A stretch of DNA of 63,760 nt, counting the filler, from Sluysia triapertura (taxonomy: Eukaryota): assembly GCA_046118255.1 (NCBI GenBank). It is 5 parts of 5 records of this genome, joined end to end, with 100 filler letters (N's around TTAATTAATTAA, not from the genome) between each part and the next. Parts side by side here need not be neighbours in the genome. Positions count along the whole stretch, not along the records: positions 52,487 to 63,760 come from JBJNIA010186514.1; 4 more parts are not named here. One strand, 5' to 3'. Both the position numbers and the translations under genes were made by a program. Positions 20,200-63,760 of the stretch are shown here, piece by piece; positions within the stretch are counted from its first letter, which is position 1, and every line of letters begins with the position of its first letter. The notes under the pieces are model-generated. The model had not been told where the DNA came from and searched no databases. It worked only from the letters and a program-made list of their open reading frames with translations.

Positions 20200-20496
20200 A
20201 TGCAATCAAACACTCGTCTTCATTTAAATCACCACCCAGAGCGCCATAAATCACATCATCGAAATCGCTGTCATCTATCGAATTGGGTAGAGATTCTTCT
20301 TGACCTTATTCTGGTTCATCCTGATCGTCAAAATTCACAGACGAGATTCAATGTTATGCCTTTTCATAATTGTCTTTAATTGCCATTCTTTTATTTTTAT
20401 GTTGTATGTCTGATATATTTTGTGCCTCAAATGATCATGTAGAAAAGTTGAAAATATTACCGCTATTATTTGTGCAGCATGTTTTTTGTACAGTAC

Positions 20497-20556
<60 letters not shown>

Positions 20557-23300: not shown

Positions 23301-23499
23301 TATAAGTTATCAACATCTGATTCAACAATGGAAAACTTGTTAAATCTAGTGTCAATTGAAAATGTTTGTTAAGAAAATTTCGTTTCATATCAGTATATTT
23401 TGTCAAGTTTGATGAATAAAGTATAACCATTGTTATTAATTGAATAAATAATAATATTCAGGTTATTATATAGAGAAATTTATTCTGAATCCCTCTTAC

Positions 23500-24980
23500 G
23501 AACATTATACTACTGCTTCTATCCTTGCCATTGTATGTTTCTACACCAGATGTATTTGATTGCGAAGTTGGAAAAATAGTAGTGTCCTACCAATGGAGAT
23601 TTTCCCAGTTTGGGGTTGGTCTTGTGGTCTTGACGGATTTAATGGAGAAATTTGATAATTCTGTTGAGGTGCTAACGGAGGCATTGCTCTCGTCATTGGA
23701 AGTAAAACTAATTGCGGTAATACTATATGTGCTCCAAGTAGTATTTTGAGAAATCCTGATCTTCCATGTGCTACACATTTTCTTACTTAGTACATCCATG
23801 CCTGTTATTACGTCATAGGGACATATATCTCATATTGTTACAAATATATCTACATCTAAAATTGTAATATTCCATTGAACATAATATTCTAACTATCTAC
23901 TGTAAATAATCGTATACCAACTTCTTGTAACACACTAATTTCTAAAGCGTTTAATACATTATAATTGATAAAGGATTATTTGAACAGATCTTGCTCATCT
24001 TTGATTAAATTTAATACTTTGTACTAAATGATTTTGTATATCATATTTATTGTACTTTTTGATTTATCTATCATTTGTTTAGGTGGTTTTCTCTACCTTT
24101 AATCTTTGGTTTAACTTTTAAAATACTTTTTGTTACTTTTGTCTCTTAAATTATATTCTTCTTTTGGTACTAATTTGCAACGATTTACGTGTACAACAAA
24201 AGTTTCGGCGTTCATATCATTACTTCGTATGGTCATTTGAACGGCTTATGTAAGTTTGGAGAATATCCTGTTTTAGCTATTGGATAATCTACTAATACTT
24301 TATCTCCTATTTTAAAATTACGTTCATTTACTTTTTATCACAAGTATCTTTATAAATTTCTTGTGAATATCTTATTTGTAATCCAGCAAGTTTCCACGCA
24401 CTTCGTAAGTTAAAGGTTTATGATCGGTACATAAAAATACTCTTTATCCTAGTAGAAAATGTATAAACAATTTGTATGTATACACTATTGCTAGACTATT
24501 GTAGAATAGTTCGTTTCTGCTTTATTTAATCTTTTACTTGCATATGCTATTACCCTTTCTAAATTTTCTTAATTTCTTTGTCGTACTATTGCTCCTATTG
24601 CAAAATTTCTGGCATTAGTTGTTATTTCTTCTCTTTGTTTTCTCTTTTTCCTTAGAGCATTTAATTGAGATGATATAAGAGAAATTTAGCTAAGAAAGGA
24701 AAACATCCAAGTATTAATTTCCAATTAAAACCTACTACTGATAATATTTGAGATATTATAAGAGCAATGACCTTAATTATTACATATAAACCTATTAATC
24801 CTGAAAATGCTTGTCCTATTACTAAGAAAATTCCCATATATGTTTTAAAGTATTATGTGCCGCTTTCTTAAACTGGTCGGGTCCCAGTAGTAATTCGAAA
24901 TTCACCTTACCATCTTTTTCTACAAATGCTTTACCAACTTTATCTGTAAGTACTTTTGGCCTTTTAATAGGAAATAATAT
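23500..24980 (-). mobile_element. Internally deleted sister copy of the env-gypsy element: glycoprotein C-terminus, RNase H, integrase tail, second protease
   Basis: Reverse-complement translation gives ILFPIKRPKVLTD..NFELLLGPDQFKKAA..GQAFSGLIG (matches 57126-57330), TTNARNFAIGAI..IAYASKRLNKAETNYST, FVVHVNRCKLVPKEEYNLR and CPYDVITGMDVL, in the same order as the plus-strand element. Confidence 0.85.
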
Positions 24981-25320: not shown

Positions 25321-25409
25321 TATTAATGAACATAATAATCACATAAATGTTATCATTATTATTGTTATTTTCTTTTTTATCCTTATTATTAATCTATCTC
25401 TCTGTTTGT

Positions 25410-25825
25410 TTTAATTTTTCTTTTATACTTTATCCAGAACTTTTTGCCAACACAAATTTAGAACATGTACTTTTAGTTCTATTCTTTATTATGATACTTT
25501 GTTTGTGTTTTGATAATCAATTGGCTTTGTTTGACTGTATTGTTATTGGATTGATGGACGACATAACACAAATACTAAAATGGAGTTGTATTAGACAATC
25601 GATTTTTGTAACAATTCATATATTGTGCTTCATTGCGTCGTTATTATTCATCACAGAGACGGGTTTCTATTGGTTTGTTTTGTATCAAAAATTTTGTGTC
25701 AGTATTCAATTAATAATTGTCGTATTTTTAGAATCGATTTTGATTAGTCATGTTTATGGTTTCGAAAATTATGACTGTGATATTCGATTAATGAATGGTG
25801 AAACTATTTATGTGTTTTGGAAATA
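25410..25825 (+). CDS. SLC6 / sodium:neurotransmitter symporter family transporter, partial (about TM8-TM11)
   Basis: FSFILYPE..VLFFIMILCLCFDNQ..LFITETGFYW..FLESILISHVYGFENYDCDIRLMNG..YVFWK matches the SLC6 pattern AFIAYPE..LFFLML..LGLDSQ..GG.Y..E...I.W.YG..F..DI..M.G..FW; truncated by a gap. Confidence 0.75.
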
Positions 25826-28800
25826 NNNNNNNNNNNNNNNNNNNNNNNNNNNNNNNNNNNNNNNNNNNNTTAATTAATTAANNNNNNNNNNNNNNNNNNN
25901 NNNNNNNNNNNNNNNNNNNNNNNNNAACATATACAAAACAGGTATGAATAATCGAGGTTGCGAGGAACAAGCAAAATTCCGTGGTGTATGCTTACTTCTT
26001 ATCGAACTAATTATTTTATTTTTATTCTTAGTGTTATATTTATTATATATTTTTACAAACGTTATGGTATTAACAAATCATGTAGTTATATTAAATTTAA
26101 TTAGTGTTTCTTTGTTCTCAGTTGTTTCGGGCCTTAAGCCCATGTTTGTAAATATAAAATCAATGTTCATAAGTTTTTATGTTTTAACTGTAATTTATTT
26201 TAAAATTTAATTTAAAATTTAAATATGTTTGGCCCCCGACAATATAATAATAAAAATGGAAATAAATAAATAATGCACAAAAATTCTTTCTTTACTTAAA
26301 ATTTCTTTTTCTTTTAAAATTCTTTTCTTTTGTTTAAAGTTTAAAATTTAAACATTTATTTAATATGTGAAAATAATACAAAATAATTTAAAATAACATT
26401 TAAATTTAATAGTAAAAATGCATAAACTTATTTTCTTTTAAAACATAAATCTTTAAATTCTTTTGAATCATAAAACTTATAATTACTTTTTCTTGAAAAT
26501 AAATTCTTGTAGCCAATAATTAAAAGTTGAAATTGTTAAAGAAATAATAGTGTGAACATAAAAATGTGAAGAATAAAAATTATAAAATGAAATTAGTAAA
26601 AATTGGAAATGATGAAAGAAATTCCACTTTGATTATAATATTTTACTTAACTTTGAAATGTAGATTAGATGATTTTCGATGTTATTAATAACTTTAATGT
26701 TGAAGAATTGTGAACTTAAAATGTGTTGAAATGTCTAAAATTTTAATTGTCTTGAAGGAATAATAGGTGAAATGTGATTTTAGTGTGAAGTGATAAGGTT
26801 GGCCACTATACGTGGTACTTATTTAACAATGCATTTATTAATAAAATATATGAACGTTATCCAATATATCCTGACAAACTTTACAAACGGAACCTGCAAA
26901 CATCAAGATGACAAAATTGACACAAGTGGCTGTTAATTATTATTTTGACACAATCCAGTACATCAGTTACCACAAGAACATTTCGTAAATCGCATTTCAA
27001 CTCCATAGACGAAGAAATATTTTGTTCTTTATGTCAATTACGATCTTTTGATTTTTATTATTTCTTTTTAATTGATGATTATTTTTATCTTAGTTTTCTA
27101 AAGTCCCGTCTCCGAAATGTTCACAGACCCTTATATATTTTATGTTTAAGCATTTGATATATCTCGCACTTATTTTAGACAAAATGTATTTGATTTAGTT
27201 TACATTTTGAATAAATGCCTTTTAGATCGCTTTTATTACTTTTTGTAGTAAATTTAATTTTAATCTTAGAAGTTGTAAAAGAAATTTTAATAGAAATATT
27301 TTAATAATCGATTTTAATAATTATTATCCAAATAAACTTTTACCAAGTAACAATTTAACATCTTTCAATAATACACCACCAAAATGGTCTAGCCTGAATT
27401 ATCAAATGTATATTTTATGATTTTAAACTTTAAATTAGTCTTTTTGAGGTCTAATCTAAATGATTAAATAATTTAATTATAATAACAAATTAAATTTTAT
27501 TATTAATACACACTTAAAGAAAAAACGTAACATAAAATGTATAATATCGATATAATTTTAGTCTTAATATTCAGAATCTACTGTTCTGGTAATAAATTTA
27601 TTTTAATTTAAAATTAAGCTAACTGTGTAAGGTCTAGCGTATATCAAAAAAGATTTTAAGTAGATTTTGACTCTTCTAATTATAGTAAGAGTAAAAAAAC
27701 TTAATGGGAACCAATTTACTGCTTCATGTATTTTCTTTTTGACTAGCTAAAACCGGTGTTGGATTTTGTCAGAAAATTACGTGTTAAAAATTGTGTCATT
27801 GTAAAAAATTCAATCTATTTATATTGTAAACTGCCATCTTGTTTTTTAATATAATTAGTTCGAATAAACAGATTCGAACATTTTAAAATTAAAACTACTT
27901 CTTAAACATTTAATTTATTAATCATTTATTAAAAATATTAATGATTTAATAATTTATATTTTACCAACTAATTTTTTATTTAATTTTATGTTTATAATAA
28001 ATATATATATTTTAAATAAAACATTAAAAACAAAAATATTTACATAATTATAAATATATAAATACATCGATAATCAGCACTCTAACATACTTATAAAAGT
28101 TAAAGTATGATGGGTTCGCCTATAGTAGATAACTTGTATCCTGATGGAGGATGATAGACGATTATCCGCGATTAAACCTTAAGATTAAGGTAATTGTACT
28201 TTGAGAGGGCAAGCTATAGTTTACTTTTTAATCTACTTAACTTTTTACTCCAAACTTTGTGCCTTGATCATTTTCCTAACTTTCATGATTTTTGTAGTTC
28301 ATATTCTCATTGCTGTTGTTATTTTTATCGACTTCTACGGTATTTAACAGAGTAATTGATTTAAATCTTGAAACCAGTTCTTCATCATTTAAAATATAAA
28401 ATGAAGAGTCTTCATTTTTGATAGTTTCATCATTAAATTTTAATTCTAATTTACGCAAATTTGCGGTTGAAGTCAGTGGTAAATTATCTGATCTACTAGA
28501 GGTGGTGGTAATTCAAAATCTAATCCTTTGAGACTATTTTCTGTTTCATTTTTTGGAAATATTTTCTTTTTTACTCCTATGGGTTTTAAATTAGGACTTG
28601 GAGTTAAATTAAATGCTTCAAATTTAGCAACTTTTTTTGATAGAACCAGTCAAAGAATTACGAAAATCGGTATTTACCATTTGGAGTTTTGAATGTTGTA
28701 CAGTATGGATTTTCTTGTATGGTCGCTGCTTTCTGTTTAGGAGACAACATTTTATCTTCCAAATTGCACATTTGTACTTTCAATGCCATTTAATCTAAAG

Positions 28801-29052: not shown

Positions 29053-30735
29053 TTAAATTGTATGTGAAAGGGGTCGGCGAGTGGCCTGTGTAAGACATTT
29101 ATTTGTGTTGGTAATGTTGGTACCAATATCGTGTGCGATTAAATGTTTTTGACTTGTGCAAAAGGGTTTGTGTGTTGTATTTGCGTTAGGTGTTAGATGA
29201 GGGAAAAAGTTTTTGTAGTGTATGTTAGGCGTTGTGATTTGTTTTTGTGATGGAGTGTGTTCAACTTGTCGTGGTGGAGTTGTGTGTTTATTAGAGTTTG
29301 AAGTAATGTTGTTATGTAGGAGTTGATTTGATGGTAAATTAATACTCGTGTAGTGTTGTGTTATATCAGAGCGTATTTGTTCTAGATCTTTATTAAATTG
29401 GTTAATGAGGTGCGATAAATGACTTCGGTCCGTAGTGTCTGTGACAGTGCACTTGCCAATGTTCCTTGGCTTATGTGGTTTTGTATTGGATGGAATTGTG
29501 TAAATTTTGTTAGTATGAAGTGCCCATTGAACGTGTTTTGGTTCGGTGGTATGTTGCTTAAGATGTTTAGCCGTATTGGTGTTATTTGGTTGTTTAAGAA
29601 TTGATTTAAAATTTGGCTTATCGGGTATGATTGGTGTGGACAATGTACATATAGATGGTGAAGCTACAGAGTTGATATTTGTGCGTTTTTGTTTATTGAT
29701 GTTCTTTGAAGAGTAGCATGAAAAAGTGTAAATGGGTAAGTTTATGTTGGTTGTAGTAAAGCCGTAAGGTATAATCTTGTTATTTTTATTCCACTTATGG
29801 TTGTGGGAGGAATTTTTACTTTGCGTATAAGTGTTTGAGTGGCGATTTTGATGAGGTGAATATGACGTGAAGTCGGAGGTATTTTGTGTGTGAGGTCGGT
29901 GCGTTGTATCTGTTGGACATAAGTCTTTTGTTATACATGGGTATGATTTATGTTTGTTTATAGCTTTGGTTAATGTGTGATTGTGATTGTTAATGTTATT
30001 GATCGTGACCCGATGTTGTGATATAATATGTTGTAAATTATATTGTGTTGAGTTGTTGTTATTCAAACAATCTGATATATTAAGTGGGTGTTTTTGTGAA
30101 AATGAATTAAGGGGTTTAAAATTTATGGTAGGAATGTGTTTAATTTGATTGAAATTGCTTTTAGATTGCTCATTATTCGCTGGAACATATAAGTCCTTGT
30201 AATAATTCGTAATACCCAAAGAATTTAATGCGTATAGATTAATGGGGTTGACATTAAAATTTTGTCTTACATAGGATTTTACTGAGTACATATTAGCTAA
30301 TTTAGAATTTATGTTTAAATCATTTCTAATTTGGTTGAACTTTGTTGAAATAAAAAATTTTAAGATTTTAAAAATAATATCAAAATTATTATTGAAAATT
30401 ACACAAAAAATTACTTTATCTCCGGGAGTGTCACCTTTTCCTTGGTTGAATTGAAGGTAGAATGAAGCATAATTAGAAGTGAAATGTGTGGTGCTTTTAG
30501 AAGTACTTTTCTCCTGACACCATTGTTGTGATGGCCGGTATACGTTATAATTGAAATTGAATTTAGATTTATAATAAAATTTATAATTAAATGTTATTAG
30601 TTTTGAAACATTAAAATTTAACGAAAAGAAATAAACAATATAGTAGTTATATTCACATTTAAAAATAAAATCAACGTTTAAATTACAAAAGGGTTTGTAA
30701 TAATACAGCAATTTAGGCTTCCAAAGCCCATACAT
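29053..30735 (-). CDS. Orphan 560-aa ORF rich in N/H/T/K/P, low complexity
   Basis: Longest uninterrupted ORF in the window; strong C/A strand skew; no family recognised. Confidence 0.4.
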   Translation of the reverse strand: MYGLWKPKLLYYYKPFCNLNVDFIFKCEYNYYIVYFFSLNFNVSKLITFNYKFYYKSKFNFNYNVYRPSQQWCQEKSTSKSTTHFTSNYASFYLQFNQGKGDTPGDKVIFCVIFNNNFDIIFKILKFFISTKFNQIRNDLNINSKLANMYSVKSYVRQNFNVNPINLYALNSLGITNYYKDLYVPANNEQSKSNFNQIKHIPTINFKPLNSFSQKHPLNISDCLNNNNSTQYNLQHIISQHRVTINNINNHNHTLTKAINKHKSYPCITKDLCPTDTTHRPHTQNTSDFTSYSPHQNRHSNTYTQSKNSSHNHKWNKNNKIIPYGFTTTNINLPIYTFSCYSSKNINKQKRTNINSVASPSICTLSTPIIPDKPNFKSILKQPNNTNTAKHLKQHTTEPKHVQWALHTNKIYTIPSNTKPHKPRNIGKCTVTDTTDRSHLSHLINQFNKDLEQIRSDITQHYTSINLPSNQLLHNNITSNSNKHTTPPRQVEHTPSQKQITTPNIHYKNFFPHLTPNANTTHKPFCTSQKHLIAHDIGTNITNTNKCLTQATRRPLSHTI

Positions 30736-30999
30736 TTCACGTGGTTTAGCAAAAGAAACGATATAATGAGTAACTGTCCAAACGTCCGTGCACAGTCACG
30801 ATCGGAGAGTCAGTAGAGTATCGCACTGTATGCATTCTTCCAAAACATAAGGGCATGTGTATGCCGATGTATTATTATGATCAAAATTAAAATATTCTAT
30901 GTTATCTTTATTAAGATCAACTTTAAAATACTTTATATTATCTTTTTACGATTTCGCGTTTAAATGAAAACGTTAAAAGTTATATTTTGCTCTGTTACT

Positions 31000-37119: not shown

Positions 37120-37730
37120 CAAACGAACCATTTTACAAACATTTTGAGTTCACTTATGGATTCTCGTCTTTCATAGCAATCATCTCATATTTCATTCATC
37201 ACATTTACATCACTCTAAGTATTAAAAATTTAACATTCCATAAATAAAAATTAATTAAAATTTGACTTTGATCAATAATAAACCTTTTTTTTTCATAAAC
37301 TCGGTCAAACTATACCTTCACCGAAAGGTTTTTAAAACAAATATATTCACAGTTTCACATTCAAACGTTATTCACAAAAATGTAATTAAGTTAATTAATC
37401 TATTTTTGACTTATTATTATTTTACGTTTAAAGGTTTTATTTAGACTCTAAAGTTATTTATTAATTTACAAGACATTCAGGAGACTAGATGTTTCACCTT
37501 CAATAATATAATTCCTTTTTCTACTTCTTCATGTTAATTATTATTACACCAGATTTACTATTAACAGTGATATTATTTCTGAAATATTTTAAAGATTTCA
37601 GAAGCTTATCAAGGTTTCAAGTCTCATAAAGGTTCATAAAGTCTCAGATGATCTTAAGGTTTACAAGTTCAAAGGTTGTCTAATGCCTTTAAAAGTTTTC
37701 CAAGTCCATATCAAGCTTCCCCAATGTCTC
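37120..37730 (+). repeat. Dispersed ~600-bp repeat (copy 1)
   Basis: Colinear similarity to 52488-53165, e.g. CATAGCAATCATCTCATAT, AACTCGGTCA, CTAGATGTTT(T)CACCTTCA, ACAAGTTCAAAG. Confidence 0.75.
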
Positions 37731-38123
37731 ATGTGGTGCCATCCTCAAAATTTATAAAATTTCATAATCAACCTATTCACTTCACTGTTACTTTCCCACA
37801 TTAACATAAACTATAAATCATGCTCTCTAAATTCCAAACCTCACACTAAAATCATTTGTATCAATATCACAGTTCCTTTCCCTCTGATTATCATCCACAC
37901 CATCATCATCACTCTCAATTTTACCTTTACTATTTTATTATTTCTATAATTTTTATTATTATTATAATTGTCATTACTTTAATTATTTTTATTGTTTTTA
38001 TATATCTATATATCTTAAATACATCTAATTTATTTACATAATCTATTTTTAGCTTTTAAACAAGATAAAAATGAAGAATATATGTAGCGAAGACGACGAA
38101 TTGTTAGAAACTCGTTTCAATGA

Positions 38124-38630
38124 GGTTACAAATCCTTTAAATCCTATTTTAATGAACAAGTAGCAATTGCGTTTTGTGAACAAGTTATTAATGAAGTTGA
38201 AAAGTTTACTCAAAATTTGCCAGCAGATTTAACCATTGGTGTTTTAAAGAAGTTATTAGAATCAAAATTAAATGTTCCCGACCTAAATCAAAAATTAATC
38301 TTATACGGGATACTAGCTGATAATGTTACTCTAGGTGAATTAAAGTTAAATAAATCCTGTAAAGCAATGGGTGTTAGCTTATCTCAAAATGAAAGTGAAA
38401 GTTTATTTAAAATGGAAGCTGATGTTGAAGCTGTTTTACTTGCTCATTTAGATAAAATATTTAAAAAGATTTCGATAGTTCAGACACGTGACATGAATAC
38501 TAATGCAAATAAAGCGTTTACTTTTGATGTTAGTATGATATATCATAAGGCAATTATGACAGAAACCGTCGATTATGGGGTCCTGCAAATGCAGATTAAT
38601 CTCCAAGACGAGCAACTTTCTGGCCAGTAA
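38124..38630 (+). CDS. BAG1-like protein (ubiquitin-like domain plus helical BAG-like region); start unclear, possibly a pseudogene
   Basis: TIGVLKKLLESKLNVPDLNQKLILYG.LADNVTLGELKL is a UBL fold; the following SESLFKMEADVE..HLDKIFKKISIVQ resembles the BAG1 linker and first helix. The upstream ATG at 38071 is out of frame. Confidence 0.5.
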   Translation, partial: GYKSFKSYFNEQVAIAFCEQVINEVEKFTQNLPADLTIGVLKKLLESKLNVPDLNQKLILYGILADNVTLGELKLNKSCKAMGVSLSQNESESLFKMEADVEAVLLAHLDKIFKKISIVQTRDMNTNANKAFTFDVSMIYHKAIMTETVDYGVLQMQINLQDEQLSGQ

Positions 38631-41272: not shown

Positions 41273-42580
41273 CCAATATTGCAAAAAGATTTTAAGAATA
41301 TAAATAATTATAAGTTTTTTTAGAAGAATTGGCAAGATTTTTAAGAAGAATAAATATAAAGATTAAGTAATTAAGAAGATTTTTGAAACAGTATTGATAT
41401 AAGAATTAAGTATTTAAGAAGAATTTAAGGATTAATATTGAATTTAAGAAGAATTTAAGGATTAATATTGAATTTAAGAAGAATTTGAAAATTAATATTA
41501 AGATTTTTGGAAGATTTCGTTAAGAATGATAAATTTAAGCAAAATTATTACTCCCTAAGCTAATTATTGATATATTAAGTAAGTTTTAAGAAAAATAGAG
41601 AAGCAACTTGTATTATACGAAGATTATAGATCAAAATTAAGGAATTATATGGCTTTACCTAATGAATTTAAGAAATATATGGGATAATTAGCCAGAGAAA
41701 TGCGTCCAATGTTCAGAATTAAGTGATGATCAAGAAGTAGAAACAGATATAGAAAATACCTTTAATAAAGAAACAGATGATGAAGAAATACAAGCAGAGG
41801 AAATAGAAACAGATTAAGGTGCTTATAACAGTGCCACAGAAGAAATGGAATCAATGCGAATAGCTGATAATGATAAAATAAATATCGCAGAAACTAAAAC
41901 TAAGGAAATTGATCAAAAAGTTGAAGAATTTTTATCAAATATGACTCATGGTAAAGACTTAAATGAAGATTTAAATGACTTATTCAATTTAGAATTAAGT
42001 TTACAGAATGGACATGATATTAAATTAGTATTAGCTATTTTAAACAAAGAAGATAGTTTATATAAGACAAAAGGAAGAAAATTATTAAGAAAAATAGGAC
42101 AAAAAGAAAGAAAAGATAACCCTAGGAACTAATGAAAATAAGTATAATTATTAATAATGCTTTGAATATTACTACGGAACTCTCAGTTACTTCAATTGAT
42201 AAAGATATTATAGAATTACTTAAGTCAAATGACCCTGATATTACTGATGTTGATTTATATTTTTATGGCAGAAAACTATTACCTAATGATTACATAAATG
42301 ATTACGGTTATCCATCCATGAGGAAGCATCAATGACTTCTGCAGCATAATGACATATACTAAGCCTTCCGATGATTTAAGAAAATTAGATGAATAAATGA
42401 TGACAATGATGTTGATTTAGGCAGAACTCCACTTTTACTACTAAGAGAATTAATGGAAGACAATTATAATGAAAATAATAACCATAATGAAAGCAAGATT
42501 ATAGATATTACCAATGACAATGATGATTATATCGAAGATAAACCCGATTATATAATAGATTTAAATAAAATTCAATAACA
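41273..42580 (+). mobile_element. 5' internal remnant of the env-gypsy family (leader with 30-bp tandem repeat, acidic region, UBL domain)
   Basis: ORFs 41845-42335 are paralogous to 54455-54900 (FNLELSL..KGRKLLRKI..ERKDNPR.LMKISI..SNDP..VDL.Y..YP); 30-bp tandem repeat at ~41415-41487. Confidence 0.75.
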
Positions 42581-50629: not shown

Positions 50630-51238
50630 TGTTCTTAAAGAACGAAATTTGCTTCTCAAACGTCAAGAAAATGATCCATTTTTGAAATGAATTATTACTG
50701 GCGACGAGAAATGGGTTGTTTACAAAAAATGTTAAGCGCAAGAGATGAACCAGCTCAAACTATTTCAAAGGCCGATATCTGTTTGGTGGGATTCCGCGGG
50801 CAATACCACGATTAATCATGAAGTTTATTGTGATCAACTGGACAAATTGAACGATTCACTCAAACAGAAAAGACTAGAATTGACCAATAGAAAATGTATA
50901 GGTTCCACTATAATAATGCGAGACCTCAGACAAGTTTGGCATCTGGCCAAAAGCTTTTGCAACATATTCTTCAGATTTGGCCCCTTCAGACTATTACATG
51001 TTCCAGTTTCAGCAAAATTCTTTGGACAGGAAGACCTTCACTTCACATCAGGACGTCAAATGTCACTTGAACCAATTTTTTGCCAAAACAGATCAGAAGT
51101 TTTATGAGCGTGGAAGCATTCTTCTGCCCGAAAGATGGCAAAATGGATAATATATAATTTAACAAACTGTTTATAGACTAAAAAATATCTTGTTTCATTT
51201 TCACCAAAGAAACGAAATTATTTTCCGAACTCAATGTA
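50630..51238 (+). mobile_element. Mariner transposase remnant with 3' TIR
   Basis: NDPFLK*IITGDEKWV, VWWD, VYCDQLDKL, NNARP, YSSDLAPSDY (YSPDLAPSDY motif), LPERWQ; TIR-like AAACGAAATTATTTTCCGAACTCAAT. Confidence 0.9.
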
Positions 51239-52385: not shown

Positions 52386-52487
52386 TNNNNNNNNNNNNNN
52401 NNNNNNNNNNNNNNNNNNNNNNNNNNNNNNTTAATTAATTAANNNNNNNNNNNNNNNNNNNNNNNNNNNNNNNNNNNNNNNNNNNNC

Positions 52488-53165
52488 AAACAAACCACTC
52501 TACAAACATTTCAAACTCACTTCTAGATTCTCCTCTTCCATAGCAATCATCTCATATTCAATTCATTATATTTGTATCATTCTAAGTATAAAAATGTCAA
52601 CATTTCATAATTAAGAATTAATTAAAATTTGAATTTGCTCAATATTAAGGCTTTCCTTGTATGAACTCGGTCACACCATACCTTCATCGAAATGTCTTTT
52701 CAAAATAAATGCATACACAATTTCAAATTTAATATAGCATTCCGCATTCAAACTTTATTCACGAAAATGTATTTTTCCTTAATTAATTAAGATTTTAATT
52801 ACGATTTTAGACTTAATTTTATTTTATGTTTAAAGGTTTAATTAAGGTCCTAGAGTTATTTAGTAGTTTATGAGGTATTCATAAGACTCTAGATGTTTTC
52901 ACCTTCACCGCCCTGATTCCTTTATCTACTTCATTATGTTAATTATTACCATAGGAGATTTATCTTTGATACCAATAACAATGATTTTATTTCTCAAATA
53001 TTTTAAATACTTTATAAGGTTACTAAAGGATCTCAAATGCTTATCGATGTTCCAAGAGTACTTAAAGGTTACTAAGGTCTTAAATGATCTTAAGGCTCAC
53101 AAGTTCAAAGTTACCTTAATGCTTTGAAAGATTTTCAAAGTCCATCTCAAACTTCCATCTCATGT
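52488..53165 (+). repeat. Dispersed ~600-bp repeat (copy 2)
   Basis: Homologous to 37120-37730. Confidence 0.75.
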
Positions 53166-53339
53166 CTCAAACTCTTATATAGGTGTGGGGAGGGCTTTTT
53201 ATACCTTAAAATTAACAAATTATAATTATTTTTGTTTATTTCTTTTCTTTGTAAACAGTTATTATAAAAATGAAATTTTGAAACTGTAAATAATGCAATC
53301 TAAATAAAAATTTGTAAATAATTTAAATTTAAGTGAAAA

Positions 53340-54100
53340 TTTGTAAAAAATGAAGCAATGTTAATAAATAAACTTAAGAATGGTCTACGACCCGAATTGC
53401 AAGTATTTGTAAGTTTAAGAGATAATATACCGTTTAAAGTAGTGGTAAAGACATTAAGGGGTATCGAAATATCACAAAAAGAAACTGAAAAACCACGAAA
53501 AGAAAAAGATAACATAAATTATATAGATAATAATGTTACAACTATTAGGTTACACCTAAAAACAAGTCTAGAGATTATTTCGAGGATAGTGATTTTGAAA
53601 CAAATAAATTTCAAGAAAATAAAAGAGGTTTAAATAGCTATAATTCAAGAAACAATTATCACAATCAAGGAAAAAATTACCAAAATTCAGGGAGAGATTA
53701 TCACCTTTCAGACAGAAACTATCAAAATACAAGAAGAACTACAAGAGGATTTGCAAGAAACTATTCGAACAATGCTTCCAGAGATTATGAGCAACGACTA
53801 CTTCCAAGATGATAGACAAAAAAATAAAAGTCCATCTAGACCAAATTATAATAATTACAAAACAAGAACTAATACAGAAGGAGAAATAATATGTCATGGT
53901 TATAACAAACCAGAATACTATGCTCGCAATTGCAACAAATTGAAATCCGAAACTTTCAAACAAAATTTCAATAAAAATAGACAAAGCTCTCCAGGAAGAG
54001 TAAAGTTTGAAGGCAAGGGACAGATCACTTGTAATTACGATGAAGATTACGAAGATTCTGGTTATGAAAAATATCCAAGAGGAAATGTTACGTAGAGCAA
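53340..54100 (+). pseudogene. gag: Gag, C-terminal part
   Basis: LKNGLRPELQ helix, heptad-like RNYQN repeats (53650-53740), decayed zinc knuckle ICHGYNKPEYYARNC (CX2CX4HX4C). Confidence 0.7.
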
Positions 54101-54689
54101 AGTTAGATAGTATGGATATGCACAAAGAAAGGAGAAAAACAAAGATAGATCAAGAAGAGGATGAAACATTCATTAATTACTTTTTTCGGAAAAAGGAGAA
54201 TGAAGATAAAAAGAGAATAGTGAAAGTAGTAAAGGAACAACAGAAACTGACCACACAAGAAATAGAAGAAAAGAAAAGAGCCGAAGCAATTATTAAAAGA
54301 TGGGAAAAAGATAATAATATAATAAACGAAGAAGAGTTAAACACCCAAGCAGATGAATCAATTAATGAAGATGACTTAGTTGATGATATAATTGAGGATA
54401 TCGATTCGATAATTATATTAGGTAATGAAGAGGAAGAGCCAATAGTTGACTTAGATGATAAAAGAAAAACGTACACTCCCGAACCATCAGGCATTTCTTA
54501 CTGAATTAGAAAATGATGATGATATCGATAGAAATTTGGATAAATTTTTGAATTTAGACTTAAATTTGTTTAATACGCAGAGTATCAAACCAAGCTTAGT
54601 TATATTAAGTGAAGCCAGCAATCCTCATCAATATAAGGCAAGAAAACTATTAAAAAAGATTGCATTAATGGAAAGAAAAATAGATCCAC

Positions 54690-54890
54690 GAATGTTAATG
54701 AAAATTAATATATCTTTAAATGGACTTATCAATATTTTCATGGAATTACCAGTAATTTCCTTGATTTCAAGACATTATTAACATAATAAAATCGAATGAT
54801 CCATCCATTTTGAACGTAGACTTATTCTATGATAATATATATTTAATACATACAGATTTTCTTAATAATTATGTTTATCCATTAGGAAAC
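54690..54890 (+). pseudogene. Ubiquitin-like domain within the retrotransposon polyprotein
   Basis: Paralog at 42132-42310 reads MKISIII..TELSV..LYFYGRKLLPNDYINDYGY, compared with ubiquitin LIFAGKQLEDGRTLSDYNI. Confidence 0.45.
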
Positions 54891-55687
54891 CACGAAAAAA
54901 TAATAAAAGCTGTTACTACTAACAAGACTGCCGAATACGAAACCTTATTCCAAAATAAATCGGATGATGAAGTAAACGCGAACCCTCAGACAATTAATGG
55001 ATGAAAATGATAGTGAAATAACGAAAAATAATGATAATGAAATAACTAAAAATAATGACACAATAGAAGAACCTGATTATATGGTGAATCTTAACAAAAA
55101 TCCAAACATTGAAACCAGCGACAAGGAAACAAATACAATTAAAAGATGGCCCTGTCGGCCAAGAAAAAGTGAAGAAGATATATTAATAACGCTGAATCCT
55201 GTTCGAAAAAAACGTTATAGATTTGACAAAAATAATAGACGAAAATGATGAAGAACCAATGGAATTAGATACAAACATAGTGTATGCGTTTTTATCTAAT
55301 ACGTTTACAAACTTCAGTAAGTATAAGAAATTATTACCCAAACTAAAGAGTACAATAATAAAACTTATAAAACAATTAGAGAAATATAAGGACAAATATG
55401 TTATTGATTTTATAGAGAATGGAGAGTATAAATCAATTATTAATAAACAACTTAGTAAGGGAATAAATAGAGAAAGATTTAAAATAATTTTAGCTTACGC
55501 CGTGTTTCAATGCAATAAGGAAAGGATAATTGATAAGAATAAGATAAATAAGGTTTTGTTAATAAGAAAACAAAGTTATGGATTGAAGAACAAGGAGGAT
55601 TGAGAAAAGAGAATCAAAAAATCGACGAAACGTCAAAATAACATGTTAAATACTGCTATACCACGATTAGGAAACTCAGAAAACAAT

Positions 55688-57460
55688 ATGCTCTTTGTGA
55701 TAATATTGTTATCTATGTTTGGTATAAACAAATCTTGTGCAATAAAAGCCTCTGACTGTAATCAACCACAAGTTGGCAGGAAATTCTCATTACTTGGCCC
55801 GGAATCAAGACCAAGCAGGATCCAAATAAAATAAACTAAAATCTTTAGTACATATCAAGAAGGAAATCTAATAACAGCTCTGGTTAGAGAATGTTTGGTA
55901 AAAAGATCAGTGGTGATATGGTATTATGGTCATCATAGCCATTCATCGATAACAGAATTACCACATGTATTAAAACCATTCAAGATTTTGTCGAATAATT
56001 GTAGAGATGCCTTCGAAACAGGATATATCGGATTGGTAAAAGGTGATAAATTACGAGTGAGAAATAATGAAAAAATTATTTATAACATTAGAACTGCCGG
56101 AAATGTACTAACAGATGGGACTTGCGAATAAGGATCAATCGAGTATGAAGGGAAGATTTATCATAATGTAGTCGCTCAAGAAACTTTTGTAGTAAGCTTA
56201 AAATCTTTTAATGAATGTTTTGATATTGGAAAAGGCGCAATGATGTCTAGATCATTTTGCCGAATGGATCAAACAAGTTGTGATACAGGTGAATCCACTC
56301 TAATATATGAATTGGATAAGTTCCAGTGTTCTTTAATATTTTTAAAACAAATAAAATTTAATTTAGTATCCGGATAATGATGATCTACCAATTGAAGAAA
56401 TAAACAAAAAGGAACAAGTACAACGTAAAACATTAGATCAAATAGAAACTCCTACCATTATGATGGTCAGTAAAGAAGAATATGGTTCGATCTTTATATC
56501 AAAAGGAACGATAATAAGATGTGGAAAAGAAATTATCGAAACCAATTATCAAGGTATTTACCTTTCTGAAAAAACAATATTACAAGCAAAAAAATGAATA
56601 GATTCAAAAAATATAAAATTAAATAGTTATTTTAATAATATGACAGACTTCTACTACCATCTTGGGTTAATGTCCTTAGAAAAAATTTATTAAATTATGA
56701 TTGCTCGGGATTGCCAGCTGAACAAAGAAATACTACGTACAAAACTGGCAGTGGCCATAACAAATCACGATCTGGTCGCATCATTATTACCATTAGAAGA
56801 AGGCGTATTTGGTACTATACACTTACAAATGTAAAATAGTGGAAGTTCAACTAAGACCAGCGACAGAATGTACAAATGAATTACCAATAATATATGGAAA
56901 AATAGAAACTTATCTAGAACCAGTAACAAGGGTAATATTCCCTAGTGATAAAATTATAGAATATATGAAAACTTATGGATTTTGCTACCACACAGAACTC
57001 AAGTCAAAGTACCGGAAATTATTGAATTAACGGAATTAAAAGGAAAATTGAAATTTTTAGCAACAAAAAATATATCCCATTCAGCTATGTACACAAATGA
57101 AGATATACAAGCGGCGTGGCGGTAGATACTGTTTCCTATAAAAAGATTAAAAGTACTAACAGATATATTAGATAAGGCGACAGTAGAAAAAGACTGAAGA
57201 ATAAACTTTGAATTATTGTTAGGACGAGATCACTTTAAGAAGGCTGCTCAAAATACATTAAGACAGATTTGGGGTAGTTTTTTAATTCTAGGTCAAGCCT
57301 TTTCAGGGTTAATTGGTATTTACATAATAATTAAGGTGATAGTGTTAATAATATCTCAAGTTTTCTCTGTTGTCGGAATTTATAAGATTTCAGGTTTTAC
57401 ATGGAAATTGATAATAGGCTGATTTCCATTTTTGGCGAAGTATCTGTTACACCATCATGC
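55688..57460 (+). pseudogene. env: Env-like class III fusion glycoprotein, chuvirus G-like
   Basis: Signal peptide LFVIILLSMFG..CA, then IKASDC, ECLVKRSVVIWYYGHHSHSS, AG..TDGTC, NVVAQ, CGKKIIETNY, DCQLNKEIL, CKIVEVQLRPATECTNELPI..YLEPVTRVI and TM region IWGSFLILGQAFSGLIGIYIIIKVI. The motif order matches chuvirus-type G (GYDC, YYCGMHSH, DG.C, C..V.V.....CYNELPV..L.P..RI, W..F..FG..SAG..GI). Confidence 0.8.
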
Positions 57461-57694
57461 TAACTCACAAATAAATGCATTAAGAAAAGAAAGAACAAGA
57501 ACTGAAAATGAAAATGTGGCATTACAAACAATTCAAAATGATGAAAATGAAGAAATTGAAGAATTAAAGGAAAATCTTAAAAGATCACAAAAGGATACAC
57601 AAAGGGATAAAATTTATCCAAATCCCCCAACATCACCAGTGCCAAATGTGGTTTATATGATAATATGTGCAAATAACAACTATAATAATTCTAA

Positions 57695-58010
57695 AAGACC
57701 AATGGCCAACGTCTAAATCAATGGAAGAATAATATTGGAACTTGTAGATACAGGAGCAGTGGCATCATTAATTAATGAAAACCAGCTAACAGAAGAAGAA
57801 CAAGGGAACCTTGCAAATCATTTTTCACATTTATCAGGAGTCACTGGAGACGCCATACATTTTATTGGAGTAATGAAAGCCATATGCGAAGTAGGACAGA
57901 ATAAAGTTGAAGTAAAACTAAGAGTAATGAAAAAATGTCCAGAAGACATGATATTGGGGATGGATATACTATCACAACTAAAAGGAGTAATATTGGATTT
58001 TGATATTGAA
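57695..58010 (+). pseudogene. Aspartic protease 1 (retropepsin)
   Basis: RPMANV*INGR..LVDTGAVASLI...CPEDMILGMDIL. Confidence 0.9.
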
Positions 58011-58539
58011 TAACTAATGGATAGTTATTCAAACAGAACTATCGATGACGATGATGTTTACGTTGATGAACCATTATGGTTATTAAGTAGAACCGAATAC
58101 ATAATGCCAGCAAAAACAAATAGTTCATTAACTGGCCTAATTACGTTTATAGCTTCAGAAACTAATCAAGGGAAATTGGATATAGGTATTGCAGATTCAA
58201 TCTATAATAATTGCGAAGGAAAGATACCCGTTCGAATTATAAATTATACGAATGATAATAAATGGTTATTTAGAGGAACTAAATTAGGAAGAATTGTTAA
58301 TTATAAAATACAAACACATATTAATGTAGTGACTGATACGAAAAGCAATACAATAAAATTAGCGCGACATACAAGAAGAAGATTATGGAGAAATTCAAAT
58401 TAACAACAAAAATCTAACTAAAAGACAAAAGGAACAACAATATGAAGTTATACATCGGTATCCAAGAGCAATTTCAAAAAACAAATGCGATATTGGAGAC
58501 TCTAATTATAAAACACGAGATACCACTAACAGAGGATAA

Positions 58540-59330
58540 GTAATTCGAAGGAAACCTTACAGAATTCCTATTTGCAATCAAAAAGAAATGCAAGATCAAA
58601 TCGATACTATGAAGAAGACTGGATTAATAAGACTTAGTTTCTCTCCTTTTTCATCATCAGTATTACTAGTTAAAAAGAAGGACGGTACGACGCAGTTCTG
58701 TATAGATTTCAGAGAATTGAATAAAAAACACGAAAAGATGCATTTCCACTACCACGAATAGACGAGATGTTAGATAAATTAGGGAATTCTACATATTTTA
58801 CAACTTTAGACTTACAAAGCGGATATTGGCAGATTTAAATAGCAGAAAAAGATAAACACAAAACAGCTTTCACATACGGAAACGAACTACACGAATGCGA
58901 AAAGATGCATTTGGTCTAACCGGCGCACCGGTAACTTTCCAACGTTGTATGAATTTTGTGCTATCAGGATGTAAGAATGTCATGGTATACATAGATGACA
59001 TCATAATATTTTCAAAAGATTTTAAGACTCATCTAGAAGACATCGACAATATTTTAAAAAGACTAGAAGTTACAAGACTTAAGATAAAACCTACAAAATG
59101 TGTATGGGCAGAAGAAAAAGTATCCAAAGATGGCATTAAACCAAACCCAAGAAATATCGAAAAGGTAATTAAGTTCCCTCAACCAGATAATGTTAAAAAG
59201 GTTCAGAGTTTTTTTAGGTCTAGCTAACTATTATAGAAGGTTTGTTAAAAATTTTGCAAAAATCGCGCAACCTCTCAGAAAGCTAATAAAGAAAAATGTA
59301 GAATTTAAATGGACTGATGACCAAACCAAA
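58540..59330 (+). pseudogene. pol: Reverse transcriptase (Ty3/gypsy)
   Basis: [80 protein letters not shown]. Confidence 0.95.
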
Positions 59331-59394
59331 GCGTTCAAGGAATTGAAAGAACATCTCACCTCAGCACCAATACTAATTTTTCCTGATGTTAGTA

Positions 59395-59730
59395 AACTGT
59401 TTATATTAACTACGGATGCTAGTAATTATGCTATCTGCGCAATTTTAGGCCAAAAAGATAAAAATAATCTCGAAGCAGTCATAGCACACGCCAGTCGGAG
59501 ACTTAACAAAGCAGAAATGAATTATTCGACTGTAGAGAGAGAATGTCTAGCGATTGTAAATTGTTCAGACATTATTTGTTAGGACAAACCTTTGCTATAC
59601 TTGTATAATCACACAGATGAAGTCAGTAGACTTAACAGATGGTTTAATAAATTGTCCGAATTTAATTTGGAAATTGTTTATAAGCCAGGTAGCTTAAATA
59701 ACGGAGCTGACTATATGTCAAGATTAACAT
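59395..59730 (+). pseudogene. RNase H (Ty3/gypsy)
   Basis: FILTTDASNYAICAIL, NYSTVERECLAIV, RLNRW, YKPG..N.GADYMSR. Confidence 0.9.
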
Positions 59731-59949
59731 ATGTAGATGATAATGGGAACATAAATTTAATTCAAATTATGTCAGTATCGGGAAAAATGCAAAATTCTGA
59801 AGAAATTATTAAACATCAGAGAGAAGATAAAGAGATAAAGAGAAGATAAAGAGATAAAGAGAAGATAAAGGGACCTTAAACGATTTACAAGCCAACAGAT
59901 TAGCTATTATGGATGGGATATTAAGATTTAATAACAATAAAGATAAATG

Positions 59950-60870
59950 GAAAACGATTATCCCAGAATCATTAATTATACCCATTTTAATACAATTTCA
60001 CGATGAGTCACTTATCAACGAGAAAGACATCAAGAATTAAAAGTAAATACTACTGAGACGTAAAAATACAGGACAAAAAACTAAAGTACCGTTAAAACCT
60101 GTGCCAGTACCATTATCACCAATGGAATTTACCGCTATGGATATTATGGGTCCTCTCCCAGAGACTATCAGTGGTAATAAGTATATAATAGTATTCGCAG
60201 ATTATTTGACAAAATGGCCCGAGGATTATCCAATGCCCAATCAAAAAGCCGAAATATTGGCACAAATATTGGTGGAAAAGATAATATTCAGATATGGAAC
60301 TCCTAGAAAATTATTAACAGATCAAGGAACTAACTTTACCAGCGATGTAATCAAGTTAGTGGCTAAAATTTTTAATATTCTTCGACTTTATACATCGCTT
60401 TACTATCCAAAACCGATGGACTGGTGGAACGTGTGAACGAGAGAGAAACAGACTAGGATTTATATATAGCACTGTCTTTTTGCACATAGAAGTTCTGTAC
60501 ATCCATCAACTAATTTCACTCCTTTTTATTTAATGTATGATAGACATTCTAATATGCCAGAGGATTTGAAATAGGTTCCACAACGTGACAACATGAGAGA
60601 ACAATTACAGGATGCATGGAAACGGGCAGGTCTTCAAATTAAATATTCTCAAGAAATATATAAAGACGCATACAAAGCAGCTAAAGAACATACTTTTAAA
60701 ATAGGTGACGATTATCCAATAACTAAACCGGGTCAATAACTTAAGTTACATAAACCTTTTAAAGAGCTTTATTTAATAACAAAAGTTACTGATACAAATG
60801 TATTTGTTAAGGATCCTAATAAAATTAATTCTGAAACGTTTGTAGTGCATGTCAATAGATGTAGATGGCA
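59950..60870 (+). pseudogene. Integrase
   Basis: MDIMGPLP..GNKYIIVFADYLTKWPE, LTDQGTNF, Y.PKTDGLVERVN, TPFYLMY, FKIGD, VVHVNR; HHCC region partly deleted. Confidence 0.9.
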
Positions 60871-61029
60871 ACAAAAGAAGAATATAATTTAAGAAACAGA
60901 AAGTTACAAAAATCAAAATTGAAAATTCAGCCAAGACACAAAGATCGAGACAAACCACCTTCATTTCATGCACTAAGACATAAACAAGTAATATTTATGA
61001 TGCATTCCCATGGAAATGACTTGGCTCAC

Positions 61030-61320
61030 ACAATGCAAAACGTACGATTCAATGGGCGTTGGGTTAGAGCACTTATAGATACCGGCGCTACCATTTCAGT
61101 GGTTCATAAGAACTTTTTAACTACCTGGGAATCAGTGTTCTTAAATAGACCAAGATTGATAACATAAAATGTCAATCCAACACCAATAAATATCAATGGA
61201 GCTCTATTATGCTATATAGAAGTATTATGGCAATATGTACAAGTTTTAGTAAATGTTTGGGAAGTAGCCTATACGAATTAATATTAGGTATGGCTGTTAT
61301 CAATAAATTAGAAGACATGG
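61030..61320 (+). pseudogene. Aspartic protease 2, downstream of integrase
   Basis: VRFNGRWVRALIDTGATISVV ... YELILGMAVI. Confidence 0.8.
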
Positions 61321-62150
61321 TCATTTACATTAAATATGGCTTTATAAAAGTACCACCAGGTTCAAACATGATTATACCACAATTAATAGTTCCACAAGTC
61401 GGTGATGAATTAACCTTACATCAAATGCCAATTTCGAATCCACCATTACAAGTTCCAGACTTACCATTACCTGATATCGTATATCTACACTTAATTTATC
61501 AGATGTATCGTGTGGATCTTCATCAATAGTTACATCAGAACGAAGTTTGGACTCATCAGGAATTGGCTCAGATGTTCAAGATACAGTAATGATAATGACC
61601 CATATAAGGAAAAGAAATTGTTTCAATAGAAATTGTTTTAGAAAAATAACTTGTTGGCTTTATATCTTAATTGTGATTTTTCTATTACTTATAACTAATG
61701 CTATAGCAACGGAAACAGATGAAGAATACAAAAATATGATGGCAGAGAACAAAAAATAATGATTACCAATAATTATAATCAATATTGGAAATTTGAATTT
61801 ATTTCCAAGAAAATGATTGCGCGACACAAATTTGAAATTTATTGTATCTATTTAAAGCCATTACTAGTGGGGAGACCACATCATTTAAACGATATTCCAC
61901 ATTGTCTGCATTATGGATGCAGACATGTGTTAATAACTTTTTCTTCAGATACCCCAATAAATACACGAGATATTTGGAAATTTATCAAAAAAGTAAAACA
62001 TTTGGAAAATGGAGAAACCCATGTCTACCGCATAACACTAATAATGATGACGACGACGCGTATACAGTTCCACATCGAAACAATTACGCTCCTCCACCGG
62101 GCATGCCAATAGTTCCACCTCCAATTTATGAATACGCTACATATAATTAA

Positions 62151-62882
62151 ATGCCACTCATACGAGACTGGCAAATGACTCAAGTAAAATCTACAATCTT
62201 GATATTTATCTATCTATCTTATATATCAAGTACGAATTACTTATCAGAAAACACCACACCTAGAATAATTTTAGTATCTACTCAAAAAGATGTCTATACT
62301 AGAATATTCATAGATAAAATTAAGTTATTTTCTGTTCAAATAAAATGTTGCATAATGGATTGGTGTGAAATTGAGACAAGGGCAAGTAAACAGGACTTCT
62401 ATTTGTTTATATTTTGCATGGATCAACTAATTAGTGTAACAATAACTATGGAACTGGAATATGACTCTCAGAGTGACTCCAGAACTATCTTGATAAGAAC
62501 TAAACCATTTGTTTTCCGTCAAGCTTCAACAGTAGTTGAGTTTCCAATGATCATCTATCGCTATCTCAGAAATGTACGTATTCATAACCCACCACACAAC
62601 AATACATTAATAATTGCATATGAACTACTTGACGGTTTACGTTACGGAATGATATTGCCTAACGATACGATTCGTTTATATCATATTCCAAATAATAAAC
62701 TCGTTTATCAAATTTTGGATATTAAGAAAACAGAAACACATGACTCAAAAGGATTCTGGCCAACAATCAGATATAACGACGTGCAAGTACCAGTTATAGA
62801 TAAGTATGAAAATGATTCGGATACGAATTCAGAGAAAACGGCTAAAATCAATAAAAATTTTACGAATATATTTACAATATAA
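62151..62882 (+). CDS. Orphan 243-aa ORF in the 3' accessory region of the retrotransposon
   Basis: Uninterrupted ORF on the element strand, flanked by hydrophobic TM-like segments (61650-61710 and 62980-63070); no family recognised. Confidence 0.4.
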   Translation: MPLIRDWQMTQVKSTILIFIYLSYISSTNYLSENTTPRIILVSTQKDVYTRIFIDKIKLFSVQIKCCIMDWCEIETRASKQDFYLFIFCMDQLISVTITMELEYDSQSDSRTILIRTKPFVFRQASTVVEFPMIIYRYLRNVRIHNPPHNNTLIIAYELLDGLRYGMILPNDTIRLYHIPNNKLVYQILDIKKTETHDSKGFWPTIRYNDVQVPVIDKYENDSDTNSEKTAKINKNFTNIFTI

Positions 62883-63760
62883 ACATGAATATAAGTTCGA
62901 ACACTACCAATATAAATACGAATGTCAGTAAGGAAAGTATTGAGTGCCCAGCTATAGTGAAATCCAACAATAATTTCATCATAACTATTAATTATATTTT
63001 AATAATAATTTCTTTAGTGACAGTAATTAATTTTATTATTCCAAAATTTTATTTATTAGGCATAGGGCTCATTTCTTCATATAAATCCCAAGTCATATTG
63101 CATAAATGACCATATGTAATGGTACTCCCATTCATTAAAATCATAAGGATTAATATTAAATTTGTTATTAACAAATAGTAAGGATAGTGCAAATGACTGT
63201 ATGTGATTGTTTACCATTCATTTCGATTCATGCAAAAACTAAAATATTACTTAACTTTTATTTGGGATTAGGATTTTTTAATTTTTTATAAAATTAAAGC
63301 TTTTACTAGTAGATTCGATTCCGTCGCAGATTTTGTTAATAAACACTAGAAATCCTCTGTCGATCAGTTCTTTCTTTATCAAGCTGTTCAGTATCATATT
63401 GGTTCAAGTACCTTTTGTTGTACTCATCATATGCGTTAAATACTTGACTCTGGTTAGATTCATCTTAAATGGAATAATGATTCTTTAAAAGCATCTTAGG
63501 GAAAGTATCGTTTTAATTCAGCATTTCTGGTCATTACCACATTGACTTTAAAATTACTGATTATAAGTTGAATACTTTGCGTCTTGGGTAAATCGTAATT
63601 ACTTATAATGATGCATCGTTGATCATTGAGAAGGACATAACTATCAACTTTGACGAAATATGTGATTTGAAAGTGTGACATATAAACCATTTCTAAAGTT
63701 AACATACTCTCTAATGATAAATTCATATAACTATCTACGATTGATTGTAGGCAAACAAAA

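Follow-up and report, generated by a model that had tools for sequence, protein, structure and literature searches.

The stretch of DNA analyzed here (63,760 nucleotides, hereafter the window) comes from the genome of Sluysia triapertura (GenBank assembly GCA_046118255.1) and consists of five pieces with four gaps between them. The last piece (positions 52487 to 63760; record JBJNIA010186514.1) contains a Ty3/gypsy retrotransposon that carries a glycoprotein (G) of the chuvirus family, referred to here as env, between gag and protease. This copy is decayed, 5'-truncated, and dead; its active ancestor probably made one polyprotein that was threaded through the endoplasmic reticulum (ER) membrane and cut by the signal peptidase of the host and by the element's own protease. 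We observed the domain order directly, as well as junctions that keep the frame both before and after env, and relatives in which env and protease, or Gag, env, and protease, form one stop-free chain. The GC content of the window (21 to 32%) is that of AT-rich eukaryotic sequence. Features are on the plus strand unless stated otherwise.

A Pfam scan of the three plus-strand frames of positions 53200 to 63200, with stops read as X, gave the order env, RVP, RVT_1, RT_RNaseH, and rve along the window. The env span (55688 to 57445; ca. 586 codons) matched PF24664 (Monjiviricetes_fusion) with an E value of 1.4e-34 and belongs, by sequence, to the chuvirus/gB family; the available part of PMC13524379 reports a class III fold for env proteins of this type from AlphaFold analysis. 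It starts with an internal signal-like hydrophobic segment (55688 to 55744; hydropathy peak of 1.99), followed by the gB-type ectodomain (55739 to 57270), which was delimited by PF24664, phmmer relatives, and collinear tblastn blocks and has three frameshifts and six stops. Next comes a membrane-proximal and transmembrane (TM) block (57270 to 57445; stop at 57420), identified by hydropathy and by its presence in relatives, with a TM-like peak of 2.62 at 57297 to 57353. The same C-terminal hydrophobic block was seen in nine polyprotein relatives and six stand-alone G proteins among those listed, and a short tail follows it in stand-alone G. In the window, the open reading frames (ORFs) and stop positions define an env tail and linker (57446 to 57698) that is open and in the same frame as the protease. 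All 21 pattern-matching relatives longer than 400 amino acids (aa) had a hydrophobic run before an A[YF]DC-type start, N-terminal in five stand-alone G proteins and internal in polyproteins, so that the internal segment at 55688 to 55744 occupies the position of the N-terminal signal peptides of stand-alone chuvirus-like G. An earlier reading of this DNA without database searches (the sequence-only reading) had described a chuvirus-type G of ca. 580 codons with a signal and a C-terminal TM, and the Pfam match, both hydropathy peaks, and the length agree with it. Protein homologue searches with the env-protease piece and with the env N-terminal piece were empty, both being weak negatives.

The reading frames join env to its neighbors on both sides. 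The ORFs starting at 57216, 57432, 57735, and 58017 lie in one frame, with single stops between them at 57420, 57714, and 58011, and those at 55223 and 55643 lie in a common frame that is interrupted once, by stop 55601; both series had been noticed correctly from the sequence alone. Stop 57714 falls within the start of the protease, and the 97 codons that separate this stop from the env hydrophobic block are open (P is about 5e-5 for the stop density of the other frames). At the junctions in the window, env shares a frame with the domain before it and with the protease after it, the arrangement that characterizes the planarian Burro elements discussed below. The 5' half of env shares its frame with the upstream ORF and the 3' half with the protease, and these frames differ because of frame changes near 56375, 56810, and 56950; the seven env stops are at 55832, 56129, 56595, 56691, 57123, 57195, and 57420. 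The earlier statement that env is in frame with both neighbors holds piece by piece, but env itself is interrupted by its three frameshifts and seven stops. Between 55196 and 60865, there are 20 stops and about eight frame changes, and this copy falls outside the intact-frame rule of the errantivirus survey; the broken frames are the mark of a dead copy and not of another kind of element. Stops made up 20 of 1,874 codons in the homology-supported frames and 386 of 3,794 in the other frames, a descriptive comparison given that the segments were chosen by homology.

Downstream of env, the pol domains follow in the order PR (the protease), RT (reverse transcriptase), RH (RNase H), and IN (integrase). 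The aspartic protease (57699 to 58010) has a DTG motif, the stop at 57714, and an RVP match (E value of 4.5e-9). It is followed by a segment (58014 to 58340) in the position of the Burro dUTPase-like domain, which aligned with relatives P0002, P0006, P0038, and P0061 and gave no dUTPase Pfam match at an E value of ≤1. The RT (58375 to 59215; YIDD motif) has several frameshifts and stops (RVT_1, E values of 2.8e-12 and 7e-6), the connection and RNase H (59193 to 59840) matched RT_RNaseH_2 (2.5e-28) and RT_RNaseH (1.4e-18), and the integrase (59879 to 60865), which contains stops and whose zinc-binding part is incomplete, matched rve (1.3e-7) and, by tblastn, P0002, P0006, and P0061 at 37 to 43% identity. 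Compared with solved chains, the RT had three matches at an E value of ≤0.01, the best two being 4ol8 (RT/RNase H; 1e-11) and the Ty3-G Gag-Pol (5.7e-11). No BEL/Pao-specific Pfam family matched at an E value of ≤1. As judged by similarity, with the PR-RT-RH-IN order, matches to gypsy-type RT_RNaseH models, and an RT closest to Ty3, the pol is of the Ty3/gypsy (Metaviridae) type.

Intact relatives and other copies

A phmmer search with the translation of 55196 to 56374 against 1.84 billion representatives gave 60 matches at an E value of ≤1e-3, namely, 13 of at least 1,000 aa, 7 of 600 to 999 aa, and 40 shorter ones. Domains were scanned in every relative of at least 600 aa (20) and in two shorter ones, 22 of the 60 in total, as well as in one further cluster member. 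Among the 13 long relatives, env was followed by protease in one stop-free chain in 10, and this chain included RT and RNase H in 5 and integrase as well in 4. A Gag marker preceded env in 6 of the 13 (Pfam identified 4 and a CCHC pattern a further 2), 5 combined Gag marker, env, and protease in one chain, and two (P0002 and P0024) ran from the zinc knuckle through integrase; none had RT or integrase before env. The cluster member P0061 (4,844 aa) likewise contained env, PR, RT, RH, and IN without a stop. Stand-alone G-like proteins were found in 6 of the 7 relatives of 600 to 999 aa, all of them scoring below the top polyproteins.

The env identity between the window and these relatives was 22 to 38%. 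Because they are this distant, the single frame is a property seen in the group, which we infer for the window's own family. P0002, P0006, P0038, and P0061 had 62 to 67% identity in one RT block and mostly 30 to 36% in the env N-terminal block, while for P0021 and P0024, the values were 42 to 43% (RT) and 24 to 25% (env); in this descriptive set of six proteins, relatives closer in RT were mostly closer in the env N-terminal block as well. NCBI lists P0002 as a hypothetical protein from a Flavobacteriaceae metagenome-assembled genome, and its presence in a bacterial bin is likely eukaryotic contamination. P0047 (1,259 aa) has a chuvirus-like env after N-terminal Cys/His clusters in one chain; these clusters resemble what we take to be BEL/Pao gag knuckles, and from this protein, Gag-env fusion may also occur outside Ty3/gypsy.

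Two other fragments of the same kind were found in the window. The sister copy (24159 to 24980, minus strand; blastn identity of 69 to 73%, also tblastn) is internally deleted and retains the env C terminus, a piece of RNase H, and the integrase tail. Its segment from 24980 to 24629 (minus strand) reads through at the position of stop 57420, in agreement with the sequence-only reading; being internally deleted and lacking the protease, it provides no test of the env-protease junction. The third fragment (41818 to 42330) corresponds to the helical and ubiquitin-like region before env (blastn identity of 69%; tblastn to 54635 to 54881), and its only Pfam match was PF11976 (Rad60-SLD) at 42132 to 42326 (E value of 0.064). 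In the public run X1, which covers the stretch partly and is possibly the source of the window itself and so not independent, 36,256 contigs spread over all 30 bins, env included, and were mostly 85 to 95% alike, which fits a diverged multicopy family. No RNA data set was listed as containing the stretch, a result uninformative about expression.

Regions flanking env and pol

The calls upstream of env were each weak but consistent in position. A likely C-terminal remnant of the Gag capsid (53337 to 53550) was placed mostly by position; in a phmmer search, it weakly matched P0011's gag region (iE of 0.33). It is followed by a nucleocapsid-like region (53760 to 54095) with a degenerate zinc knuckle near 53890 to 53935, matching the CCHC region of P0005 (iE of 0.0016). 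The Pfam scan gave no match for the capsid remnant or the knuckle region, and the 5' part of gag was not found in the window. These Gag-like remnants (53337 to 53950) are 1.3 to 1.9 kb upstream of the ORF at 55223, which had been taken for gag in the sequence-only reading; that ORF is not capsid or nucleocapsid and aligns instead with the Bcl-2-like region of relatives. An acidic low-complexity linker (54004 to 54504) was evident in translation, and P0005 and P0011 have acidic stretches at the same position by eye. Next, a helical segment and a likely ubiquitin/SUMO-like domain (54500 to 54920; frame change near 54765) were recognized from weak Pfam matches of the paralogous third fragment and of P0011, in which the order is CCHC, ubiquitin (E value of 0.031), Bcl-2 (0.055), and env; 54500 to 54920 itself had no Pfam match. 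In pestiviruses, a ubiquitin-like domain serves as a cleavage signal for a host protease. We rejected this role here, given that no di-glycine end was seen by eye in the window or in P0011.

The likely Bcl-2-like domain (55196 to 55603; stop at 55601) was identified by alignment with relatives and is in the same frame as the env signal. Both P0001 and P0003 gave a single continuous alignment from the 55196 ORF into env, crossing stop 55601, and P0003 has a Pfam Bcl-2 match (E value of 9.6e-4) before env. In a five-sequence profile (the window ORF and four relatives), Bcl-xL chains ranked first (best E value of 4.5e-4). The Bcl-2 signal comes mostly from the relatives, since the window 55196 ORF alone gave no Bcl-2 match and its Atlas search scores were all <0.8. 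The ubiquitin-like and Bcl-2-like matches were all below the curated cutoffs.

After the integrase, there is a second protease-like domain with a DTG motif (60949 to 61250; gag-asp_proteas, E value of 3.1e-5), which matched the postintegrase domain of P0006 (7e-4) and P0061 (0.005). We had considered the protease motif at 61050 to be part of a nested element and dropped this reading because both relatives carry the same domain right after integrase. A postintegrase membrane region of broken ORFs (61652 to 63110) was delimited by hydropathy, with a signal-like segment at 61652 to 61708, an ORF of 243 codons at 62151 to 62882, and a TM-like segment at 62972 to 63040; the tail-like stretch that ends at 62150 is rich in proline and tyrosine. 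Neither Pfam nor phmmer nor the homologue search, the last a weak negative, found a homologue of the 62151 ORF, and a single-sequence model of 62226 to 62879 was unusable (predicted local distance difference test score of 34.5). The similar layout of relatives suggests that 61652 to 63110 is part of the element: of five relatives checked past integrase, one ended after 20 residues and four extended for >400 residues, all four with at least two hydrophobic peaks. P0002, P0006, P0021, and P0061 show a second protease-like domain and a signal-ectodomain-anchor layout there, with ectodomains that had no detectable kinship to the window's 62151 ORF. Aspartic protease motifs were found eight times in P0061 (seven Pfam stretches), five times in P0005, and three times each in P0006 and P0001; P0061 also has ankyrin and C2H2 matches.

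Elsewhere in the window, we found host genes for an importin-beta family protein (13890 to 15764; IBN_N, E value of 7e-11) and an SNF-family transporter (25347 to 25874; 1.5e-22), and a mariner-type transposase fragment (50736 to 51104; PF01359, 6.2e-6). A stop-free frame of 580 codons on the minus strand (29056 to 30795), in which N, T, H, and K are abundant and which has a strong strand skew and no Pfam match, may be, as a guess, the 5' ORF of a non-long terminal repeat element. The 168-codon ORF at 38124 to 38627 has a ubiquitin-family match (2.6e-6) and is either a host gene or an element fragment. Two mutually similar decayed coding fragments were seen in translations of the minus strand (20438 to 21012 and 22637 to 23306), with a 56-nucleotide repeat near them at 18345 and 21315. 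A noncoding repeat, 76 to 82% alike between its two copies (52487 to 53156 and 37120 to 37731), opens each of its pieces right after the gap and had the highest contig depth in run X1; it could be a long terminal repeat (LTR) or an unrelated repeat.

A polyprotein model and its alternatives

In the model that we favor for the active ancestor, one mRNA would encode, in order, Gag, the acidic linker, the ubiquitin-like and Bcl-2-like domains, the signal, the G ectodomain, TM, and tail, and then PR, RT, RH, and IN. The ectodomain would enter the ER lumen, guided by the internal hydrophobic segment. Cleavage by signal peptidase behind this segment would free env from Gag, and the Gag/Bcl-2 part would keep a C-terminal membrane anchor. 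The env TM would stop transfer, so that Pol would be made in the cytosol and remain attached to the env tail up to its release by the protease. Given membrane-insertion rules and the hydrophobic segments, the Gag side would be cytosolic, the ectodomain lumenal, and Pol cytosolic. Gag, trimeric G, and Pol would then meet on one membrane, from which an enveloped particle would bud and move the element between cells. After integrase, the chain would likely reenter the membrane to give an accessory surface protein. The window copy can perform none of these steps. Of the Gag-signal-G-TM-PR-RT-RH-IN polyprotein proposed from the sequence alone, the single chain finds support in the stop-free relatives, whereas the threading through the ER is what we infer. 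A more elaborate and tentative version, to which we give somewhat less than an even chance, has the chain crossing the membrane four times, with the env signal also serving as the tail anchor of the Gag/Bcl-2-like part, Pol attached at first to the env tail, another signal, ectodomain, and anchor after integrase that would yield a second, fast-evolving surface protein, and the extra proteases, distributed along the chain, cutting it. Cellular Bcl-2 proteins carry such a C-terminal anchor. If the four-crossing version is true, the element would amount to a reverse-transcribing virus that is processed in a flavivirus-like way and has two envelope proteins.

Several observations weigh against a single threaded polyprotein. 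The calls of signal and TM segments come from hydropathy and homology, those of Gag, ubiquitin-like, and Bcl-2-like domains are weak for the window itself, and P0003, compared with solved structures by sequence, showed no fusogen among 60 of its 61 matches (E value of ≤1), all of the Bcl-2 family. No intact copy of the window's own family was seen; 3 of the 13 long relatives (P0011, P0016, and P0047) end within or at env, and 5 have a protease with no RT match, and these relatives do not display the complete chain. About seven frame changes, counted by eye from overlapping ORFs, separate the Gag-like remnants from the 55196 ORF, and a programmed shift between gag and the Bcl-2-like ORF is possible. 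No flanking direct repeat (LTR) was found among the families listed, in a contig that ends at 52487 and 63760 with gag 5'-truncated, nor was a primer-binding site seen, although no search was aimed at one.

The same gene order could have been expressed differently, with env produced mainly from a message that is spliced or starts translation internally, or with a programmed frameshift after gag setting the ratio of Gag to Env-Pol, in which case a single open frame would not mean a single threaded product. Making Gag, Env, and Pol at 1:1:1 is wasteful, and retroelements usually regulate this ratio. Methionines at or just before the signal (55643 and 55688 in the window and also in several relatives) and the frame changes upstream of 55196 favor this alternative, and the main text of PMC13524379, in the part available, presents three ORFs with no single-frame wording. 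We nevertheless consider it unlikely, as against it stand the 5 of 13 long relatives in which a single chain without stops holds Gag marker, env, and protease and the single 4,873- to 5,140-aa frame of Burro ORF1 (PMC6431247, from the part available). In addition, the nine polyprotein relatives listed all continue through the 95 residues counted from where the env hydrophobic block begins, and even a subgenomic env message would therefore run on towards Pol.

A further possibility is that env was kept in frame for a use other than infectious particles, such as cell-cell fusion, vesicle loading, or receptor blocking, with the element spreading inside cells. A receptor-blocking function of solo chuvirus G has been suggested in mosquitoes (PMC7642597, in part), and the available portions of PMC13524379 and PMC6431247 report no particle or infection for these elements. 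This seems to us rather improbable in view of the retention of signal, ectodomain, and anchor across relatives at 22 to 38% identity to the window and of the up to 215 near-identical copies of Schmidtea mediterranea members (PMC13524379, in part). As for a chance insertion of a chuvirus G gene in gypsy or nested elements with coincidentally shared frames, the available text of PMC10084718 describes chuvirus G fragments beside Gypsy fragments in arthropods, and 6 of the 20 relatives of at least 600 aa are stand-alone G-sized proteins. This explanation is scarcely credible, being already refuted by the stop-free relatives: the top matches are polyproteins and not stand-alone G, 10 of the 13 long relatives have the same order, and the sister copy likewise joins env to RNase H and integrase pieces. 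Moreover, in the 20 of 29 direct families and 25 of 273 inverted pairs listed, env was not flanked by a repeat or duplication.

Comparison with known elements

The sequence-only reading had regarded this layout as undescribed, and here it was mistaken: the gag-env-pol layout is real but already published, so the window copy adds little as a discovery. The sources compared here are cited from the portions available. Env in frame between gag and pol was described for the planarian Burro elements by Arkhipova and Yushenova in 2019 (PMC6431247), who refer for the Burro/GYPSM1 originals to Grohme 2018 and Jurka 2007. Chary and Hayashi (eLife 2026, PMC13524379; preprint 10.1101/2023.10.26.564294) described gypsy elements of the GAG-ENV-POL order, their env being gB/chuvirus-like, from Platyhelminthes, Nematoda, and Bryozoa. 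The main text of the latter, as far as available, describes three ORFs and does not use "single ORF," "polyprotein," "in-frame," or "fused," although its figures may show the frame structure. Its Smed_errantivirus_1-6 of S. mediterranea are intact, at 1 to 215 copies, and thus differ from the decayed window copy. They share with it the gene order and the Ty3/gypsy pol (the gag side being weak in the window and strong in its relatives), as well as an ordered motif series in env domains I and II (YQE, EC, C..AF.T, G.C, C...Q/E.SC.TGES, C.L..LK...F....G, TP, CG....TNY.G.Y.S), as compared by eye.

More distant parallels are found in BEL/Pao. The Anakin elements (Dezordi 2020, PMC7642597) have the same glycoprotein family in an LTR retrotransposon but are BEL/Pao elements of mosquito hosts and not Ty3/gypsy. 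Atlas virus (Belpaoviridae; PMC9094657) has a single stop-free Gag-Pol-Env polyprotein of 2,828 residues and differs in its terminal env, its class II phlebovirus-like fusogen, and its BEL/Pao affiliation.

The value of the element lies in a testable model of how capsid, fusion protein, and enzymes could come from one frame across a membrane. The host is likely a planarian flatworm, as suggested by base composition and by the resemblance, judged by eye, of env to published Schmidtea sequences; elements of this kind are abundant in that group and could spread from one stem cell to another. Membrane topology and processing of these polyproteins were not found in the literature searched, with most subscription journals outside its coverage, nor were extra protease-like domains or a second signal-ectodomain-anchor unit after integrase in the portions consulted. 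Leads beyond PMC6431247 and PMC13524379, as far as available, are therefore the Bcl-2-like domain before a membrane anchor, the repeated proteases, and the postintegrase surface protein.

Among the closest known elements is Burro/GYPSM1. As described in the available part of PMC6431247, it has the order Gag, Ubi/SUMO-like (PF11976), Bcl-2-like, Env, PR, spacer, RT, RH, and IN, its env matches mononegavirus glycoproteins, and its ORF1 belongs to an internal region of up to 25 kb. In contrast, the coding remnant in the window is ca. 9.8 kb, 5'-truncated, and dead, with no MATH, Smc, BIR, or ankyrin match, which truncation or decay could hide, and with a second protease-like domain and a postintegrase membrane region that do not appear in that part of the Burro description. 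We call the element Burro-like and not Burro because its size and accessory domains differ. It works like Burro and is a Burro-like member of the GAG-ENV-POL gypsy elements.

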